Origin: a virus
Reading direction: 5' to 3' (one strand)
DNA length: 64,000 nucleotides
IMG/VR virus record: IMGVR_UViG_3300011271_000003
Coordinates: 34,805 to 98,804 of that record
Positions 4,171-47,564 of this stretch are shown piece by piece; positions within the stretch are counted from its first letter, which is position 1; every line of letters begins with the position of its first letter. The notes below the pieces were generated by a model. It saw only the letters and a list, made by a program, of their open reading frames with translations. It did no database searches and was not told the origin of the DNA. The position numbers were made by a program, and so were the translations under genes.

Positions 4171-4560
4171 CTACCCTGGCCATGATTCGACTCTCCTCAC
4201 TGCGTGGCGTCCCATTCCATTACACCCTCGACTAGTATAGGGAGGCCCGCATCGGACCGTGTTGGCTAGTGGTGGCTTGAAGAATCCTCCACGTACGGCA
4301 TTGATTCGTATGCTCTTCGGGATTGCTCCATATGCTCCGGTAGTAGGATCTTTATAGAGGACTCCACAGCCGTCGCAGGCTGTGCAGCGCTGCCAACGTA
4401 GCTTAGTCTTACTGAACTGAGCTATGTGCCAGCGCATGTTTCCTGCTCTGTACCACATTACTCCGATAGCAATGAACACTGCGGCCACCGCGAGCACTGC
4501 GATTGCGATAAGCCAGTTCAGGAAGTCCTGAAACTGAGTCAGTATATGTTGGGCTGCCAA
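4171..4560 (-). CDS. Membrane-anchored protein with DnaJ-like CxxCxGxG zinc motif
   Basis: N-terminal TM segment (WLIAIAVLAVAAVFIAIGVMW), CTACDGCG and GCNGMG. Confidence 0.6.
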   Translation of the reverse strand: MAAQHILTQFQDFLNWLIAIAVLAVAAVFIAIGVMWYRAGNMRWHIAQFSKTKLRWQRCTACDGCGVLYKDPTTGAYGAIPKSIRINAVRGGFFKPPLANTVRCGPPYTSRGCNGMGRHAVRRVESWPG

Positions 4561-4728
4561 GGTTACTCCTTTCTGTACACGGTAGTGATCCTGATCTTTC
4601 GGAAGACCACCTTCTTGTTGAGAGGATCATTCACTGGGTAGGCAACGAGCTTAAACAGCTGAAGTGCCTCGAGGCACTTCAAGGCCTCCTCATCGCCGGA
4701 GGAGTCGAACCCGATCACGATCACCACG

Positions 4729-5058
4729 TCACTCGTCGAACCCGATGACGTCGATGGTACCGGTGTGTACTTCAGGCAGTACGTGTCCTGAGCTATACCA
4801 GAAGCCTCCGTGGTGTCTGTAGAACAGTCCTTCGCTGACGCGGCGAAGGACATCGAGTGCGGTCATGATCTGTGTGTTGTCTGCCTGGTAGACAAGGTCT
4901 AGAGGCTCCATGTTTGGATCGATTAGAAGTTCGAGGTTGAATTCGTCCGCGTAGTGCGCGGCAGCGACATAGCAGTACTCAGGAATAGCCGTGGGGTCTC
5001 GCACCGTGTTCAGTAGGACATACAGGCGCTTGATGTCATTCGGGTTCATCTTTATCAT
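4729..5058 (-). CDS. Hypothetical protein, paralogue of 33739-34155
   Basis: Shared Y.AAA.YAD and ALDVLR...G.F motifs. Confidence 0.7.
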   Translation of the reverse strand: MIKMNPNDIKRLYVLLNTVRDPTAIPEYCYVAAAHYADEFNLELLIDPNMEPLDLVYQADNTQIMTALDVLRRVSEGLFYRHHGGFWYSSGHVLPEVHTGTIDVIGFDE

Positions 5059-7227: not shown

Positions 7228-7557
7228 CTACTCCTCCCATTGTACGTGTCCGTATTTACGCAGGGCCTCGCTCAGTCGGCGAACCTTCGCTGCTATTGCT
7301 TCGTCGTCCATCATGCCTCGGCTGTATTTATGGTGGTCAACGTAGGGGTCGTAGGCCTTAGTAGGTCCCTCGTCGTAGAAGCACCAGAGACACGTCTATG
7401 TTAGGTCTCCTGTTAGACCCTGGATACACTCGAACTTGCAGTGGCAGTGCCTGCATACAACCCAGACCCATACGTAGGGCCTGTGTGTCCTTGCGTCCCT
7501 TGCTGACCGTCCATCTCTACAAGGACCTGGAACCTTAATGTCGGTTCTGTCGACTAT
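7228..7557 (-). pseudogene. Probable decayed zinc-ribbon gene (non-canonical ATA start, in-frame TAG at 7396-7398)
   Basis: One frame reads ...VVCRHCHCKFECIQGLTGDLT*TCLWCFYDEG...QWEE*, fills the gap between genes and follows a GGGAGG SD. Confidence 0.5.
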
Positions 7558-9098
7558 AATAGGTCCCTCCCGAAGATTCGTTGTGCGTCCGCCATTGCTT
7601 CCTGTATTAGGGGGTCTGCGGCTGTCATTCCGTACGCCTCAGGGTCCACGGTATCTCCTAGCAGGAACCTTAGGTCTTCCCATTTCTGGGAGATAACCGT
7701 CCTGCGTCCGATGTCCACGGTATTCTTTGCCATTATGTCGATGATGTGGACTGCGTTCTTTTGTCCGATGCGGTGCTGACGATCTTCAGCCTGTATGTTT
7801 TTTGTAGGGGACCAATGTCGATCAAGAAATATGCCTGTGCTCGCTGCATGGAGCGTGATGCCCTCGCCACCAGCAGCGATTGTCCCGGCGAAAACATGCA
7901 AGTCACCCCGTTGGAATGCTTCGACAGCAAGATCACGTTCTGTCTGGGGGACCGTACCTGTATAACGGCCGACTGATATTTTATTAGCCTCCAGCCTCTG
8001 GGCAGCGAGATCGACCATGCTTCGGAATTGCGACCAGACAACAAGCTGTTCAGTGGGGTTTCCACTAACCATTTCCTCCAGTGCATCTAGCTTGGCGGAC
8101 GGCTCGATCAGAGTGGTTGTCATTCTTCGTTCCGGCTCGGGCTCCTCTCTTGCTTCGAGCGCACGCGCTCGTGCAGTCCTGGTTATAACGTACTTGTAGC
8201 CAATCTCTACTGATGCCAGAGCAAACTGCTGCAGCCTCACCAATTGCGCAATTACAACAGGCGCCACTAGAGGTTCATCTTCATGCTCGCCAACCCAAGC
8301 GATCATGTCCTTGCGCATCTGGTTGTACGCCTTACGTTGAGCTGGTCCGAGCTCAACCCAGACGTCTGAGTAATACTTCTCTGGCAGATCTTGAAGTACC
8401 TCTCTCTTAAGTCGTCGCACATACCACGGGCGCATCTCAGCTATAAGGTGCGGAGTGGTCTCCCTGTTGGGCTTGTTATAGTTTCGGAACGTTGCTCCGT
8501 TCTTCCCCTCAACTATCTGTTCCACGCAGTAGGTCTTTACGTGTCGCCAATAACTCGTGTAGCGCTTTGGATACAACCAATTCAGAATAGACCAGATGTC
8601 TGCTGGCCTGTTGTCTGCCGGTGTCCCTGACAGGCCAGTCTTGTACCTAGCTGGTAGAGCCTTCAGCGCTCGGGTTTGTTGTGCTTTTCTCGACTTTGCG
8701 CGGTGACATTCGTCAGCGATGATGTGGAACCAGGATACCCTGCGCAACTCCGGCATAAGCCGTAGGGCCTCGTAGTGAATGATATAGCAGGTGTAGTTCT
8801 GTGACAGAGCCTTAACAAATGCTGGCCGGTCCTTCCTATCGATTACGTAGATTCTCGCTGTGGGCCAGACTAGCTTTATATGCCTTACCCAAGCATCCTG
8901 GTGTGTCGCTAGCGGCGCTATGATCAGCGTCTTCCTTTTGGGTCCGCCCTTCACGTAGGTCTCGATACGCAGCTTGTAGTCGATCCAGAGCGCTTCAGGC
9001 GTCTTTCCCAATCCCATTTCGTCTGCGATGAGACGAGACAGGAGTGTTGGTATGCCTACCTTGTCGACACACTCCTGCTGGAATGGACGTGGCTCCAA
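7554..9098 (-). CDS. SNF2-family (SF2) helicase/ATPase
   Basis: ADEMGLGKT, IIADECH, LSGTP, GGEGITLHAA and QAEDRQHRIGQ motifs. Confidence 0.95.
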   Translation of the reverse strand: MEPRPFQQECVDKVGIPTLLSRLIADEMGLGKTPEALWIDYKLRIETYVKGGPKRKTLIIAPLATHQDAWVRHIKLVWPTARIYVIDRKDRPAFVKALSQNYTCYIIHYEALRLMPELRRVSWFHIIADECHRAKSRKAQQTRALKALPARYKTGLSGTPADNRPADIWSILNWLYPKRYTSYWRHVKTYCVEQIVEGKNGATFRNYNKPNRETTPHLIAEMRPWYVRRLKREVLQDLPEKYYSDVWVELGPAQRKAYNQMRKDMIAWVGEHEDEPLVAPVVIAQLVRLQQFALASVEIGYKYVITRTARARALEAREEPEPERRMTTTLIEPSAKLDALEEMVSGNPTEQLVVWSQFRSMVDLAAQRLEANKISVGRYTGTVPQTERDLAVEAFQRGDLHVFAGTIAAGGEGITLHAASTGIFLDRHWSPTKNIQAEDRQHRIGQKNAVHIIDIMAKNTVDIGRRTVISQKWEDLRFLLGDTVDPEAYGMTAADPLIQEAMADAQRIFGRDLL

Positions 9099-15689: not shown

Positions 15690-16445
15690 TGTAACCGGCC
15701 GGTGAATGGGCCAGCGCTTCTGCAGGCGCTTCCTTGTACTGGTCTGGGTCCGATAGCTCACAGCGCCTTCACGTACACCATCGGACCCAGAAACTCCTAA
15801 GTGCCAGGGTGCCGCAGGGGTAGTGGTCACTAGTAACCAGCGCGCGTTACCCCTGCGACAGAGCGGAATCGAACCGTCCAGCATTACGATCTGCCCAAAT
15901 CTGTGTTGTTGTAAGTTCGGGCTCCGGGAGTCCTGTTCCTGGCCGGCTGACAACCGACCGTTACGGAACAGGACTCCCGTGAGGGTTTAGCCCGACGCGC
16001 TGTGCCCTGCACCTCGAAGAGGTGGACGCTCCCTCGCTATTCCTGGCCCCTTGCCAGTCACGGCTACTCACCAGGACTTTTGCGTCCAGCTCACAGCTCT
16101 AGGCACGTCGGCATCCGACACTTTCGTTCGGACCTCACTGCGAGCTGAACGTGGTGGCGCGCTTACCGTATCGTACCGTGCCATCTGTTAGCTGGCACGG
16201 GCATTTAAGGTAAGCGCGCTGTTTACGACCGGCTCCTCAGGGGCTCCTATACTTGCCGCTCGCGCGGGCCTTGCTGAGGACTTACCTGGTTGACCAGCGC
16301 CCGCCATCCCATTGGATGGCGGGCGTATCCAGTTCGAGGGTGGTCAGTGCCTACCGGTCCGTCTTCCCAGAGGGCGGTTCGGGTTCCCCACTCTCTGGGC
16401 GCTCCTTGTCACCGTACTAATCCGTCATGGGACGAGGAGCCTGTC
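15690..16445 (-). ncRNA. Large (~750 nt) highly structured non-coding RNA candidate; ends approximate
   Basis: No credible ORF; dense long inverted repeats (15, 12, 12, 11 and 9 bp); GNRA tetraloops on the - strand (AC-GAAA-GT, CCGC-GCGA-GCGG); internal T-loop GGTTCGATTCC at ~15865-15875. Confidence 0.7.
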
Positions 16446-16446
16446 T

Positions 16447-16461
16447 CTATTGAGTTGTCAA
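16447..16461 (-). promoter_or_regulatory. boxA-like antitermination motif (actinobacterial rrn leader type)
   Basis: TTGACAACTCAATAG, identical to 42194-42208 and similar to the rrn leader TTGAGAACTCAATAG. Confidence 0.65.
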
Positions 16462-16706
16462 AAGTTATCGGCGGAGCTGCCCCAGCCACCGGCCTAAGGG
16501 TTTCCACGACAGCTCCGCCTTCGGCTCTCCGTCAGCTTTGATCGTGTGCCTGCTCTCAAGGAACTAGCATCGATCTCGAGCTTTTGGCGAACCTAGTCAG
16601 CGGTGGAAGTTTGACCTCCCACCGCCGTCGACCGGTCTCAGCGTGTCGGCGCTGGCCTTGTCGATCCGGCGCTCGGTCAGCGACACCCGACCTGCGTACC
16701 GGAGCG

Positions 16707-16780
16707 TGGACCAGACGGGGTTCGAACCCGCGACTTTCCCGATGCTAGGCACGTCTGCCTAGACCCGCGCATACTGGCCC
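16707..16780 (-). ncRNA. 74-nt tRNA-like RNA lacking a D-stem and anticodon loop
   Basis: Acceptor GGGCCAG/CTGGTCC+A, T-arm GCGGG-TTCGAAC-CCCGT, central hairpin CTAGGCA-GACG-TGCCTAG. Confidence 0.75.
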
Positions 16781-16785
16781 ATCCG

Positions 16786-16885
16786 TGGGTGGGAGGGATT
16801 TGAACCCTCGAGCAGTTTCGCTGGGAGCAGCGACCCCGCGATACTTCCCTAGTATCACCGAACGGCCTCTAGCGGCATACCACCC
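16786..16885 (-). ncRNA. ~100-nt atypical tRNA-like RNA
   Basis: Acceptor GGGTGG/CCACCC, T-arm GAGGG-TTCAAAT-CCCTC, mini D-arm GCC/GGC, 8-bp stem GTGATACT/AGTATCGC with a 5-nt loop, extra arm TCGCTG/CAGCGA. Confidence 0.7.
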
Positions 16886-16934
16886 TACCACCTTACCGAC
16901 GAGAAGGGCATCAGCTCTTACCGTCGGAGGAGGT

Positions 16935-23384: not shown

Positions 23385-23864
23385 TAGCCTGACTCCTTTC
23401 TGTTCTGGATGAACCTGGTGAACATGTCCAACGCCTCGATTGCATCCTCCTCCCCCGAGTATTGCTGTCCCTTCCAGATAGGCGCATCGCTCCACTTCCA
23501 GGGCATCTCTGCGATACCTGCAGATGCTAGCGACTCCACTATCTGGAGTGCTTTAAGCTCATCCACTCTGATGGTCTCCCTTGTCGGTAATGCTAAACGT
23601 TGGTCCGAGCCAGCCGTCGGCGTAGTTCACGTAGAACCTGGAAGTCCTAGCCTCGGCGTCACTCTCTACGTCGCCCACTTCTGGTCCGTTACTAAGCGTG
23701 AGCGCCTGCCATGCAACAAGGCGTAGGTCATTCCGATCGTATCCATACAGTATGTCGAGCACGTCCTGCAATGTAGCTGCCCGAGCATCCTGATACTCCT
23801 CGTTCTCACATCGGTCATCAGGCAATGTTCGACCTCCTCGACGCTAGTTTTATCTGCTACTTAT

Positions 23865-23897
23865 ATTATATCTGGGGTCTAGAGGAAATTGCAAGGG
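23865..23897 (-). promoter_or_regulatory. sigma70-type promoter
   Basis: CCC-TTGCAA-N18-TATAAT with A/T-rich UP region. Confidence 0.8.
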
Positions 23898-37719: not shown

Positions 37720-38070
37720 GTAGATATTACAAAGTAACCCAAGCTAGATATAGCAGTAATTTCTTGTAACCGCACGTTAATCGCGGTATGTCGCTACCTG
37801 AAAATCTACCGCTCCATAAGCACCCGGTCCGACTCGCAACTTTAAGGATAAGACTATAACACTGTTATTATTAAATACTATTATATAGTGATATTCAGGC
37901 ACACCCACCTGGTAGTAGGCATTCTTGCCACTATTTACAGTAATCAAATACCCAGCTATTAGGTTGCGCGTAAAATTACATGGAGATTACGTGATTACTT
38001 CTTACAAGTACAAACATTACAATTAAGCACTTATGCGATTACAAGATTACACGTGATTCCGGCTAAGGTT
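37720..38070. repeat. AT-rich non-coding region with clustered ATTAC/GTAA repeats (origin or genome-terminus signal)
   Basis: ATTAC at 37975, 37986, 37994, 38016, 38038 and 38046; TATTATTAAATACTATTATATA tract. Confidence 0.6.
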
Positions 38071-41249: not shown

Positions 41250-41297
41250 CTCGTCTCCTTCCGAATTTTGTTGTAAATAGATTTATTTGTTATTTAT

Positions 41298-41329
41298 ATT
41301 ATATTATAGGATCTATGGAAAATCTAGTG
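41298..41329 (-). promoter_or_regulatory. sigma70-type promoter
   Basis: CA-CTAGAT-N18-TATAAT in very AT-rich DNA with upstream A-tracts. Confidence 0.65.
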
Positions 41330-41781
41330 AATTTGATTGGGAAATTTTTGGAATTTTTCATCGACTCTCTCCGTGCTCTTTGCACAGCTTGACGGTACCG
41401 TTCCGGAAGAACTCACAGGCCGGGCACCCTGCGACGAGCCACCGGAGTAGATCCGGTAGTCCGTTGTAGGCCGGCAGCTTCGGGGGCTTCATCGACTGAG
41501 TCCCGGATACTTGTCGGTCTTGCAGTCTAGCGCGTGCTTGTAGCCGGCGATTGCGCCGCACTCCGGACACCACGCACGTTCCCGTAGGTATGCCTGGTAT
41601 GCCGGTTCGCCGTCCTTACGGCGAACGTCAGCTAGCTGACGGGCAGTACGTTCTTCTTTCGTCATTTCCGTTTTCCTTTCGGATTTTCGGCATTCTGAGT
41701 TTTCGGATTTCCGACTAATCGGAAGATCCGGTTCTATAGGATCATTGTTTTGTTTAACGTTTAACGTTTACCTACTAGTAT

Positions 41782-42214
41782 TACAACTTAACAACTCAAT
41801 AGTGTGTTTGTGTGTGTTAAACGTTCTAGCTAGTTGTTGACGTCTCGTTCACGTATTGTGTTGCGAGCTCTGAGTAGTTGACTTTACTTCTTCCTGAACG
41901 ACCGTTCTTGCGGTTGTCGATTTCTTGTGTCAACCACTTGTTGAATGACTCACCATCGAACATCACTTTGATTCCATGACCCTTACCACCAGCAGCTTTG
42001 AACTGCTTGTAGTTCGATGCGATCGTTCCTGACTTCGCGTAACCATAGAATGGTTGTGGATCTAGCTCGACGTTGATGTGGTTCTTCGCAAACATGATGT
42101 TGGTGATCATCATCGCAGCGTAAGGTGTGAGATCTTGCATGTTGGTTCACTCATTTCTTTTGTTGAAGTTTTGTTTGATCTCACACAAACACACTATTGA
42201 GTTGTCAAGTTGCA
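41782..42214 (-). repeat. 33-bp inverted repeat (41782-41814 / 42182-42214) enclosing gene 41826-42140; includes boxA at 42194-42208
   Basis: 31/33 Watson-Crick pairs; both mismatches are G.U on the - strand transcript. Confidence 0.9.
41826..42140 (-). CDS. First gene of the leftward arm; LTPY...PQPFYG family protein
   Basis: Paralogue of 39577-40005. Confidence 0.8.
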   Translation of the reverse strand: MQDLTPYAAMMITNIMFAKNHINVELDPQPFYGYAKSGTIASNYKQFKAAGGKGHGIKVMFDGESFNKWLTQEIDNRKNGRSGRSKVNYSELATQYVNETSTTS

Positions 42215-42241
42215 TGTTGTTTTGTTTTTACTTCTAACTAT

Positions 42242-42271
42242 ATTATAATAAGGATCATGAAAATTTATACG
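42242..42271 (-). promoter_or_regulatory. Leftward promoter at the start of the early arm
   Basis: TATAAT in AT-rich context with a weak -35 (CGTATA) at N18; boxA ~35 nt downstream. Confidence 0.55.
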
Positions 42272-44793: not shown

Positions 44794-45054
44794 GTGAGTA
44801 TGTGGATCGATGTCGGCATGGGTCACCGGGTACAGCTTCTTGACGGTGGTGGCGTTCTCTGGGAGCATGACACTTCGCCGGGGTATCGTACTGGCTCATA
44901 CCTTGTCCGTAGGCATCAGGTTTCTCCGGTAGAAGGCGAAATATGGACCGTCGTCCAGCGTGAGCCGCTGACGCTGAGTCCGTCTTTGCATTGTGACCCA
45001 GCACTTGGTGGCTGTGGCATGCACGGGTTTGTTCGCGACGGGAGGTGGACATGA
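44794..45054 (+). CDS. Small DUF6527-like His/Cys protein
   Basis: WTV...PLTLSPSLHC....CGMHGFVRDGRW. Confidence 0.55.
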   Translation: MSMWIDVGMGHRVQLLDGGGVLWEHDTSPGYRTGSYLVRRHQVSPVEGEIWTVVQREPLTLSPSLHCDPALGGCGMHGFVRDGRWT

Positions 45055-47564
45055 CCGTAACACCGACCATGGCTGCCTACTTCAACTCTGTTGGGTATAA
45101 GCCGTTCCGGGAGCAGTGGACGTACCACAACTCCGATGCCAGGTTTAGGTTCTCTGCATGCGGACGTCGATTCGGAAAGTCGACGATGGCAGCCCGTGAT
45201 GTGATTCCGAGGTACCTGCTGAAGCCTGACAAGCGAGTATGGTGCGTTGGTCCAACCTACGATCTGAGTGAGAAGGAGTTCCGAGTCATCTGGAACGACT
45301 TGATCATAAAGAAGAGGTTTGGCAGGGACAAGCGGGTCAAGAAGGCGTACAACAAGCGGTCTGGGGACATGTTCATTACTTTGCCTTGGCAGACTACGGT
45401 TGAGTGCAGGTCTGCTGAACATCCAGATCTGCTAGTCGGTGAGGCTTTGGACCACGTTATTATGTGCGAGGCGGCAAAGCATAAGAAGGAGACGTGGGAC
45501 CGCTTTATTCGTCCGTCTCTTGCAGACAAGAGAGGCTCCGCTGACTTCCCGTCCACTCCTGAGGGCTTCAACTGGTTCTACGAGAGTTGGCAGTTCGGTC
45601 GAGATCCGGATTTGCCTGAATATGCCTGCGTCGACGAGAAGACAGAGATTCTCACACAGCGTGGATGGTTGAGGTATGATCAGGTTCGAGAGGGAGACCA
45701 AACTCTCTCGATTAATCCGAAAACTGGTTTGAGTGCGTGGGATACAATAGAGAGCGTACACCAGTATTCAGGCCAGCACGACCTGACTCGAATGGAGAGT
45801 AACCAATTCTCGGCACTTACAACAGGCAACCATCGCTGGCTCGTTAACAGTAGACCGACTCTCGATGGACGTAGTGGTGGCTGGCGCTGGAAGACTACGG
45901 ACACGCTAGCCTACGTTGATGGCGTTCCGGGGGCTGCACCTTGCGTAGACTTGCCTACGACGTCTAAGTACTCTGACGAGTTCGTTGAGCTGGTTGCTTG
46001 GATTTGGACGGAGGGTTCTCACCTTTCAGATTCGGCAAAAAGCTTGTCAATATCTCAGTCACACGTTGTGAATCCTGAGAATGTCATTCGCATTCGTCGG
46101 ACACTTGAGGTCCTCGCTCCACGGCCTGTGCGTAACCAAGACGGTTACTGGTCAGAGCGTAGAGATACTACGCGGTCAACTCGATTTGCTTTGGGTGCCG
46201 GGCTAAGTAGTCGGTTTTGGAGCGTTTTCCTGCGACATAAGGTTGTCGATCCTGCGTTTGTTCTGTCTTTGACGGAAGCGCAGCTTAGACTGTTCGTAGA
46301 CGTCTCTCAGTTGGGTGATGGGTGTACTAAGGGTGCGAACAACAGTATAGGACAGAAGTCACTAGATCAGCTTCAAGCAGTTCAGATGGCTTGTTGCCTA
46401 CTGGGTATTCCAACTACTGTTCGGCACAGCGGACCTGATGCATGGAAGCTTTTGCTGGGTAAACGACAATTTATTAGGCCTAAGCAGGCGCAGATGTCTA
46501 GCCTGAGAATCACGAAGGAGTTGTACGAGGGGACTGTTTGGTGTGTGTCTACGCATAATGCTAACTGGCTAGCACGTCGGAGTGGTTCGGTATACTACAC
46601 GGGAAATAGTTGGAAGTTTCCGAGCTGGTATAACACCAACGTTTACCCACTGGGAAGAGACGACCCCGAGATAATCCTCCTGCAGAAGACGATGGTCAAG
46701 GAGTGGTTTGAGCAGGAGATTGGGGCCGACTTCAGCTCCTTCGTCGGCAAGATATTTCCAGACTGGGACGAATTCCTGCACGTACGTCCCCATGTATTTC
46801 GGCCAGAGTGGAAGAACTACATTACGTTCGACTGGGGCTACACTAATCCGCTTGCTGCCGTGGAGTTCCAGGTTAGTCCGTCAGATCAGATTTACATTTG
46901 GCGGGTGTACTACAAGAACTACAAGACGATTCCGGATGTTGCGAGGGAACTTAAGGCTCAGGAGCATCCTGAGGGGTACCACGTCGACCTGTGCTTTGGT
47001 GACCCTGCAGATCCTGAGGCAGTCGAGATGATGACCCGGGAGCTGGTTAAGGATGAGCCAGCCGAGTCTCCCTACCGTGGCGCTCCTGTTTGGGCGCCAC
47101 CTGGCTTGAAGAACGATTACACGTGGCGAGACGGCATCGACTTGATGTCGGAGTTCATGAAGAACAACCGGGAGGTTGGACAGGACGAGTGGGGGACGCC
47201 AGAGTATGAGCCGGCGTACTTCGTTGATCCGCGTTGTCGTGAGGTGATTAAGGAACACTCTAACTACAGGTCGAAAGCTCCTGTCAAGGGGCAGAACGTT
47301 CCTGAGCTAGGGAACAAGATCGAGGATCACACTATTGACGCTATTCGGTACGCGCTGCTCTGTATTTTCAAGATCGGCTGTCAGTACCATCTGGCGGATG
47401 TCATGGCACCGGTGCCACTGGTTTCAGCAGGCGCACGGAAGTTGGAGCGGACAGCGGTGACTGATAGCGCACTGGTTGGTCTCGTGAGCGGCGGACCAGA
47501 CGTTTATGCCGGTGCCGCGTTCAGCAGCTCAGGTGGTACCTTCACACAGAACATGGACTTCTAA
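45051..47564 (+). CDS. terL: Terminase large subunit containing an intein
   Basis: GRRFGKS Walker A, VGPTY, GEALD..IMCEAA, STPEG.NW, DWGYTNP, DPA, DHTIDAIRY. Confidence 0.95.
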   Translation: MTVTPTMAAYFNSVGYKPFREQWTYHNSDARFRFSACGRRFGKSTMAARDVIPRYLLKPDKRVWCVGPTYDLSEKEFRVIWNDLIIKKRFGRDKRVKKAYNKRSGDMFITLPWQTTVECRSAEHPDLLVGEALDHVIMCEAAKHKKETWDRFIRPSLADKRGSADFPSTPEGFNWFYESWQFGRDPDLPEYACVDEKTEILTQRGWLRYDQVREGDQTLSINPKTGLSAWDTIESVHQYSGQHDLTRMESNQFSALTTGNHRWLVNSRPTLDGRSGGWRWKTTDTLAYVDGVPGAAPCVDLPTTSKYSDEFVELVAWIWTEGSHLSDSAKSLSISQSHVVNPENVIRIRRTLEVLAPRPVRNQDGYWSERRDTTRSTRFALGAGLSSRFWSVFLRHKVVDPAFVLSLTEAQLRLFVDVSQLGDGCTKGANNSIGQKSLDQLQAVQMACCLLGIPTTVRHSGPDAWKLLLGKRQFIRPKQAQMSSLRITKELYEGTVWCVSTHNANWLARRSGSVYYTGNSWKFPSWYNTNVYPLGRDDPEIILLQKTMVKEWFEQEIGADFSSFVGKIFPDWDEFLHVRPHVFRPEWKNYITFDWGYTNPLAAVEFQVSPSDQIYIWRVYYKNYKTIPDVARELKAQEHPEGYHVDLCFGDPADPEAVEMMTRELVKDEPAESPYRGAPVWAPPGLKNDYTWRDGIDLMSEFMKNNREVGQDEWGTPEYEPAYFVDPRCREVIKEHSNYRSKAPVKGQNVPELGNKIEDHTIDAIRYALLCIFKIGCQYHLADVMAPVPLVSAGARKLERTAVTDSALVGLVSGGPDVYAGAAFSSSGGTFTQNMDF
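45627..46607 (+). mobile_element. Intein (327 aa) with LAGLIDADG-type domain, in TerL
   Basis: YA|CVDEKTEILTQRGW, TTGNHRW, VAWIWTEG, SQLGDG, VWCVST...YYTGN|SW. Confidence 0.93.

Follow-up and report, generated by a model that had tools for sequence, protein, structure and literature searches.

A helix resembling the rRNA leader-trailer stalk around the first gene of the non-structural arm of an uncultivated phage

A conserved, strand-specific RNA helix closes the first cistron of the leftward arm of this phage, and within the helix lies a promoter-proximal copy of the boxA/boxC leader segment of host ribosomal RNA (rrn) operons. Leader-trailer helices with boxA are regarded as a hallmark of ribosomal-RNA operons. 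Here no ribosomal RNA is present inside the helix, and the enclosed sequence is a conserved protein-coding ORF. The stretch of DNA analyzed, referred to as the window, comprises 64,000 nucleotides, bases 34,805–98,804 of a 98,804-bp IMG/VR virus record that has direct terminal repeats. We consider it reasonably likely that the element imitates, at the level of RNA, the host pre-16S leader-trailer helix with its boxA/boxC, placed around a protein gene, and that host Nus factors and RNase III act on it to yield an early mRNA with paired ends; the biochemical part of this reading is predicted from sequence comparison.

The helix and its genomic setting

The positions of the features are given in Table 1. 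The helix-framed gene opens the leftward non-structural arm and lies where the two arms diverge; the genes of this minus-strand arm include those for a helicase, an exonuclease, a ParB-like protein, a ligase, and a Pol-beta-like protein. The G+C content of the phage is ~55%, and that of typical mycobacteria is higher. No cultured close relative was found in 50,697 phage records, either by megablast with the region or by tblastn with the enclosed protein (no matches in both cases), and its portal shares no more than 29% identity with those of Arthrobacter, Gordonia, and Mycobacterium phages. The large terminase (45045–47564, plus strand, 839 aa) has family matches that are split into residues 18–201 and 547–772, a pattern that may reflect an insert or an intein.

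Table 1. Positions of the features discussed in the text (window coordinates unless a locus is named)
Feature	Position	Strand	Remarks
Structural arm	right of 42,459	+	Possible small terminase, large terminase, portal, protease, major head protein
Non-structural arm	left of 42,140 down to window start	-	All large ORFs on the minus strand
Promoter-like TATAATATAGTTA	42235..42247	-	-10-type TATAAT and conserved ATAGTTA; exact in the window
5' (leader) arm, TGCAACTTGACAACTCAATAGTGTGTTTGTGTG	42182..42214	-	33 nt; weaker pairing on to 42175
Box TTGACAACTCAATAG, boxA/boxC-like core	42194..42208	-	Within the 5' arm
Enclosed ORF, 104 aa (315 nt)	41826..42140	-	Between the arms
3' (trailer) arm, RNA reads CACACAAACACACTATTGAGTTGTTAAGTTGTA	41782..41814	-	Pairs with the leader arm
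Third box copy TTGACAACTCAATAG, exact	16447..16461	-	Unpaired; in an ORF-free structured region; ~750 nt of non-coding RNA follows
Cassette series in distant relatives	L165:1307-2138; L172:208-1120; L180:2380-2965; L183:2506-3479; L184:1395-2710; L196:2116-4368		

The arms constitute an inverted repeat, 41782–41814 (+) with 42182–42214 (−), of 33 nt with 2 mismatches, and they reach 38–40 nt once extended. A chance origin was ruled out because 0 such matches are expected and the repeat is the only one of its kind in 64 kb. On the RNA the arms form 31 Watson-Crick and 2 G.U pairs: each mismatch places a G in the 5' arm opposite a U on the minus-strand coding RNA and would be A.C on the other strand. 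The earlier note, made from the letters of the window, had described a 33-bp complementary stalk flanking a 104-aa gene, with two mismatches that are G.U on the transcribed strand, and both descriptions were accurate. The energy of the arm duplex is −54.0 kcal/mol on the sense strand versus −48.7 on the antisense strand, and in the minimum-energy fold of a 456-nt RNA (−138 kcal/mol, z = −6.1) the helix encloses the whole gene. The complementary flanks thus form a long helix of the rrn leader-trailer type (33 pairs, −54 kcal/mol). No Rfam family matched the helix region at gathering or E-value thresholds. A reading of TTGACA...TAGTGT as a sigma-70 promoter was ruled out, the spacing being only 6 nt. 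Short direct repeats (TTTCGGATTTTCG and TTTCGGATTTCCG) and three tandem AACGTTT units are present at 41677–41713 and 41745–41770, between the trailer arm and the next gene.

A promoter ahead of the leader sequence had also been proposed in the earlier note, and a promoter-like TATAATATAGTTA is indeed found there, at 42247–42235 (−), 26 nt before the box. Of the 66 family loci, 37 have the same motif no more than 300 nt ahead of the gene; it is separated from the box by 16–63 nt in all loci that have both, and it is also kept in family members without the helix. From its sequence and position it is a predicted promoter, and the transcript probably starts just downstream. Near-copies with 2 mismatches each are at 41291–41303 (−), 23858–23870 (−), and 37879–37891 (+) and are possibly other promoters of the same class.

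The enclosed protein belongs to a family with 65 homologues, all metagenomic and none named. Four of nine family members have weak matches to HTH_17 (best E 0.0039), and a PDB profile search gave only E values above 0.2. The AlphaFold model has a pLDDT of 90.6, and its best fold matches in Foldseek are BldC (target TM-score 0.69–0.76, probability 0.8–0.9, E about 0.5). The modeled fold suggests, not securely, that the protein is probably a small winged-helix (MerR/Xis/BldC-like) DNA-binding protein. No transposase family matched it.

The phage genome was also searched for genes for RNase III, NusB, NusG, and RtcB, and none was found. Because the phage has no RNase III, NusB, or NusG of its own, any such activity must be supplied by the host. 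A circular mRNA formed through a phage-encoded RtcB is unsupported, since the RtcB gene was not found in the phage.

Conservation in relatives and the selected strand

Relatives identified in IMG/VR through their portal proteins (55–68% identity) have the same layout at the same place, 2.2–5.9 kb upstream of the portal gene. Their enclosed ORFs are homologous (35–42% identity, alignment A1) and always directed away from the portal, and in most of them the next gene lies directly behind the trailer. A flanking inverted repeat is present in 14 of the 23 IMG/VR family genes, with scores of 21–31 as compared with null maxima of 9–12; the other nine relatives keep the promoter and the gene without the helix, which is therefore dispensable. 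A metagenome scan (alignment A2) added 43 loci, ~20 of them with significant arms, giving a flanking helix at about 30 family loci in all, with arm sequences that are unrelated between lineages yet complementary. Of the 178 cells in the 12 columns that follow AAUAG, 176 hold a standard pair, and a column contains 4.1 types of pair on average; with shuffled arm partners, 54% of cells pair (maximum 73%). As the arms were found by their complementarity, the score of each locus against the null is the key test rather than the percentage of paired cells. Across the family loci the helix is maintained by covariation.

In the box-bearing lineages one part of the arm is conserved. The box consensus CTTGAnAA(C/T)TnAATAG is found in the sense orientation on the 5' side in all 12 stalk-bearing IMG/VR relatives shown and in L228, L229, L234, L235, and L237; its letters are conserved in about 15 lineages, and the remaining arm letters all vary. 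In two loci, L209 and L212, the box is located just upstream of the paired region, which indicates that the box itself is a directional signal.

The mismatches in the arms indicate which molecule is selected. They comprise 73 transitions versus 8 transversions, and the flanks of closely related loci have the two classes at about 1:1 (113:103, 170:233, 227:332, and 320:404 in the four comparisons made). In lineages with the box CTTGAnAACTcAATAG in the 5' arm, the mismatches outside the 8-nt TTGAnAAC core are 17 sense-strand G.U, with no A.C and no transversions (binomial p = 1.5e-5). Inside the core, 9 of 13 mismatches set an A of the 5' arm opposite C. In six lineages these A.C mismatches involve the two adenines that are also opposite C in the host stalks described below, and L218 and L219 have the U.G at CUC of the host stalks; the resemblance of phage helices to host stalks therefore extends to both strands and is not confined to the leader. 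The box-less helices of distant members have no strand bias (20 G.U versus 23 A.C). These counts support selection on the RNA pairing of the coding strand in the box-bearing relatives. The earlier note had argued for such selection from the two mismatches in the window, and the 17:0 excess and the covariation of whole arms bear it out.

In L153 there are two paralogues of the enclosed gene, at 4479–4914 and 7272–7676, 2.4 kb apart, each of which has its own box and a different helix. Some distant family members (L250, L256, L260, L261, L264, L265, and L267) have helices with a second arm theme, roughly CATGAGGGGnCCnGAGGG, in which the A of UGA in the 5' arm is recurrently opposite C.

The box and its match to the host rrn leader

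Over 23 positions, the box and the next 8 nt (to 42186) differ from the Mycobacteriaceae rrn leader TTGAGAACTCAATAGTGTGTTTG at only one (22 of 23 identical); as sequence identity, the leader strand carries the boxA/boxC signals of the host. An 18-mer from this segment, AACTCAATAGTGTGTTTG, is present in at least 120 genome contigs, and those that are named are nearly all Mycobacteriaceae (Mycobacterium, Mycolicibacterium, Mycolicibacter). In four loci checked with Rfam it is 115–165 nt upstream of 16S, and the consensus of the Mycobacteriaceae rrn leader is GTGTTGTTTGAGAACTCAATAGTGTGTTTGGTGG. The host leader segment pairs with the 16S-23S spacer in all 35 unique host stalks. A mycobacterial rrn leader sequence that pairs with the spacer had been presented as known in the earlier note, together with a proposal to align the region to host leaders; the sequence and its pairing are real, and the alignment gave the match described above. 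The identity supports the view that the 5' arm is a copy of the part of the host rrn leader from which the 16S stalk is formed. A mycobacteria-like host is predicted solely from this leader match. The only other viral contig with the 18-mer, L004, was taken as a chance occurrence because the match lies within an apparently continuous ORF (the frame was read by eye).

The host stalks (35 unique, of Mycobacteriaceae type, among rrn loci L005–L124) are irregular in a fixed way within the paired boxA. In all 35, the G of UUUGAG is opposite G and two U's are in U.G pairs; the AA of GAAC faces C (A.C) in 15 of 35 stalks at one adenine and 24 of 35 at the other. Leader variants in other Actinomycetota include AATAGTGTGCCAAG and AACAGCGTGCCTGG. 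Two of the phage relatives have extensions of host type: the arm of L235 (AACTCAATAGTGTGTTAGGTG) follows the mycobacterial leader even further, with AATAGTGTGTTAGGTG, and the arm of L218 has AATAGTGTGCC, a TGTGCC variant that also occurs in a different actinobacterial leader. Of the host boxA, the upstream half (UGUUGUUU) has no conserved counterpart in the phage, where the sequence is UGCAACUU. The 11-mer GAACUCAAUAG is reportedly the RNA of the NusA-RNA structure. Oligonucleotides derived from the boxC of M. tuberculosis bind the KH domains of NusA, and AUA is the critical triplet (PMC2724277); the phage box contains AUA. In Escherichia coli the RNase III site overlaps boxC inside the leader-trailer helix (PMC10250234).

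As regards antitermination, the box has the placement of a Nus-type site, being promoter-proximal (26 nt after the promoter-like motif) and at the head of a long operon. It does not stay available and is not renewed along the operon: the trailer pairs with it after ~400 nt, no second box follows the 3' arm, and the next copy is 25 kb downstream. This third copy (Table 1) is exact, no long-range partner was found for it, and a search of the 98.8-kb genome that allowed up to 2 mismatches gave no box copies beyond the three. The earlier note had stated that the 15-mer of the leader also precedes a large RNA at 16447. This holds for TTGACAACTCAATAG, which is the 15-mer repeated exactly at 16447–16461, and not for AACTCAATAGTGTGT, which has only the two arm copies. 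The third box is contained in a region (15690–16934, minus strand) that is ORF-free, G+C-rich, and highly structured, with tRNA-like T-arms. A 77-nt element (16704–16780) has weak similarity to the two ends of the tmRNA model (E 6.6e-4, under the gathering threshold), and ARAGORN called no tRNA or tmRNA in 15690–16934.

The arrangement shares several features with the actinobacterial pre-16S stalk. A long-range helix close to the promoter closes the whole product, the leader strand has (U)UGAnAACUCAAUAG followed in this phage by the host-specific UGUGUUUG, and A.C at the AA of the box and, in some phage lineages, U.G at CUC are found in both. It differs in that it encloses a 104-codon protein gene and not rRNA, in the size of the loop (~370 nt versus ~1.7 kb in the host), in being near-perfect without the invariant G.G mismatch of the host, and in the absence of the upstream half of boxA and of a second box after the trailer. 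The leader of the lambda N gene contains boxA and boxB, then an RNase III-sensitive structure ahead of N. The phage element is similar in combining a promoter-proximal Nus-type signal on a presumed early transcript with an RNase III-type structure around the first gene. In contrast to nutL-N, neither a boxB hairpin nor an N-like protein was identified in the phage; its signal is a copy of the host rrn leader and not a nut site peculiar to the phage, its helix spans a whole gene and is not a local leader hairpin, and the predicted host is an actinobacterium. The polycistronic early transcript of T7 is made by host polymerase, and host RNase III cuts it into stable messages whose ends are structured. 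Cutting of an early transcript by host RNase III is likewise proposed for the phage element, by analogy; the T7 sites, in contrast, are local intergenic hairpins without rrn boxA/boxC, whereas the phage strands flank the gene on both sides. Nut sites have been described in general terms (PMC2724277, PMC10250234), and Nus signals outside rrn operons are recorded for lambdoid phages and a few cellular genes (PMC5725501). A literature search found leader-trailer helices only for rrn operons, Nus signals for lambdoid phages and some cellular genes, and no phage mRNA framed in this manner.

Proposed mechanism, alternatives, and related arrangements

In the favored reading, host RNA polymerase would start at the conserved TATAAT-type promoter and within about 20–30 nt would transcribe the leader core CUUGAnAACUCAAUAG and, in this phage, UGUGUUUG, the copy of the rrn boxA/boxC segment. 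Host NusB/NusE and NusA would bind the box before it is paired, as they do in rrn operons. The Nus-bound box would modify the polymerase and tether the leader so that the long-range helix could form co-transcriptionally, a chaperone role that has been discussed for rrn complexes. The trailer would emerge after the 315-nt gene and close a helix of at least 33 bp around the whole cistron. Cleavage of this helix by host RNase III would free the first cistron from the polycistronic early transcript, and the released mRNA would keep its paired ends and resist decay that depends on the 5' and 3' ends. At 16.4 kb the box would shield the untranslated non-coding RNA that follows it from Rho.

The helix-and-processing part of this reading is rated above operon-wide antitermination, which is less secure because the box is paired after ~400 nt and none follows the trailer, the gene is short and translated, nine of 23 relatives are without the helix, and box-less helices are unbiased. 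Several facts count against the reading: a helix-paired, unrenewed box leaves persistent antitermination over the roughly 42-kb leftward arm unexplained, a translated 315-nt gene needs no protection from Rho, the phage does not keep the upstream half of the host boxA, and its G+C content is below that of typical mycobacteria.

In one alternative the helix is simply an end-clamp or insulator of the mRNA, acting with or without RNase III to stabilize or separate the first cistron; the rrn-like box would be a determinant of the helix or of RNase III cutting, or a leftover of its origin, and the polymerase would undergo no Nus-dependent modification. Gene-enclosing helices without the box in distant family members, and the series of cassettes in more distant phages, each with its own unrelated inverted repeat, are in keeping with this, as are the lack of a second box past the trailer and an enclosed gene that, being short and translated, has no need of antitermination. 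It is nevertheless unlikely in view of the behavior of the box, which is conserved in about 15 lineages while the other arm letters differ, lies outside the paired part in L209 and L212, recurs unpaired before the non-coding RNA, and matches the host boxA/boxC at 22 of 23 positions. This near-exact copying, directly after a strong-looking promoter, would also be expected of a decoy, an abundant early RNA in which the host boxA/boxC and stalk titrate Nus factors or RNase III from host rRNA synthesis and so contribute to host shut-off. Competition of boxA transcripts for a host factor is mentioned in PMC2724277 as a published idea for phage lambda. However, NusB/NusE bind boxA as a single strand, and the box ends mostly base-paired; a decoy would have no need of the conserved coding gene that is always inside the helix; and a genome has no more than one to three copies. 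A decoy is accordingly judged very improbable.

The repeats might alternatively function in DNA, as the ends of an invertible segment, as the terminal inverted repeats of a small mobile cassette, or as a pair of operators for the encoded winged-helix protein. Ultra-small phage mobile elements are similar in size to the roughly 370-bp segment, which has one small gene between near-perfect 33-bp inverted repeats, and the gene product looks DNA-binding. Inversion at the DNA level was the outcome that the earlier note had named beforehand as refuting its proposal; it is unsupported, since the orientation of the gene with respect to the box and promoter is constant in every relative examined. The position is syntenic, there is one copy per genome except for one paralogue pair, and no target-site duplication or direct repeat is visible at the arm ends. 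The neighboring genes tested gave no recombinase or transposase match (five flanking ORFs in the case of recombinase families). Arms that are wholly different between relatives are a poor fit to protein recognition sites, and the 17:0 strand-specific G.U bias and the 9:1 excess of transitions point to a selected RNA duplex. A DNA-level function is therefore highly unlikely.

If the favored reading, an RNA-level imitation of the pre-16S helix, is correct, actinobacterial phages reuse the machinery of rRNA transcription and maturation for mRNA, the element is a natural design for stable, end-paired mRNAs, and the letters of the arms give a hint of which host an uncultivated phage infects. A broader version, which we put forward tentatively and regard as rather doubtful, is that a clade of uncultivated actinobacterial phages took over the complete rrn module of "transcribe, tether, fold, cut" (boxA/boxC, Nus-modified polymerase as RNA chaperone, leader-trailer helix, and RNase III) to produce discrete end-paired early mRNAs and non-coding RNAs, with arm letters that track the rrn leader of each host. 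In that event the host could be predicted from the arm sequence, with Nus factors or RNase III as determinants of host range and possible targets of defense.

In distant portal relatives, consecutive cassettes of 200–450 nt are observed, each with its own inverted repeat of 28–46 nt (Table 1). The arms are unlike the rrn box and have the themes AAATCCGG and ATGTCCGGA. The wider phage group may generally tend to enclose its genes in helices.
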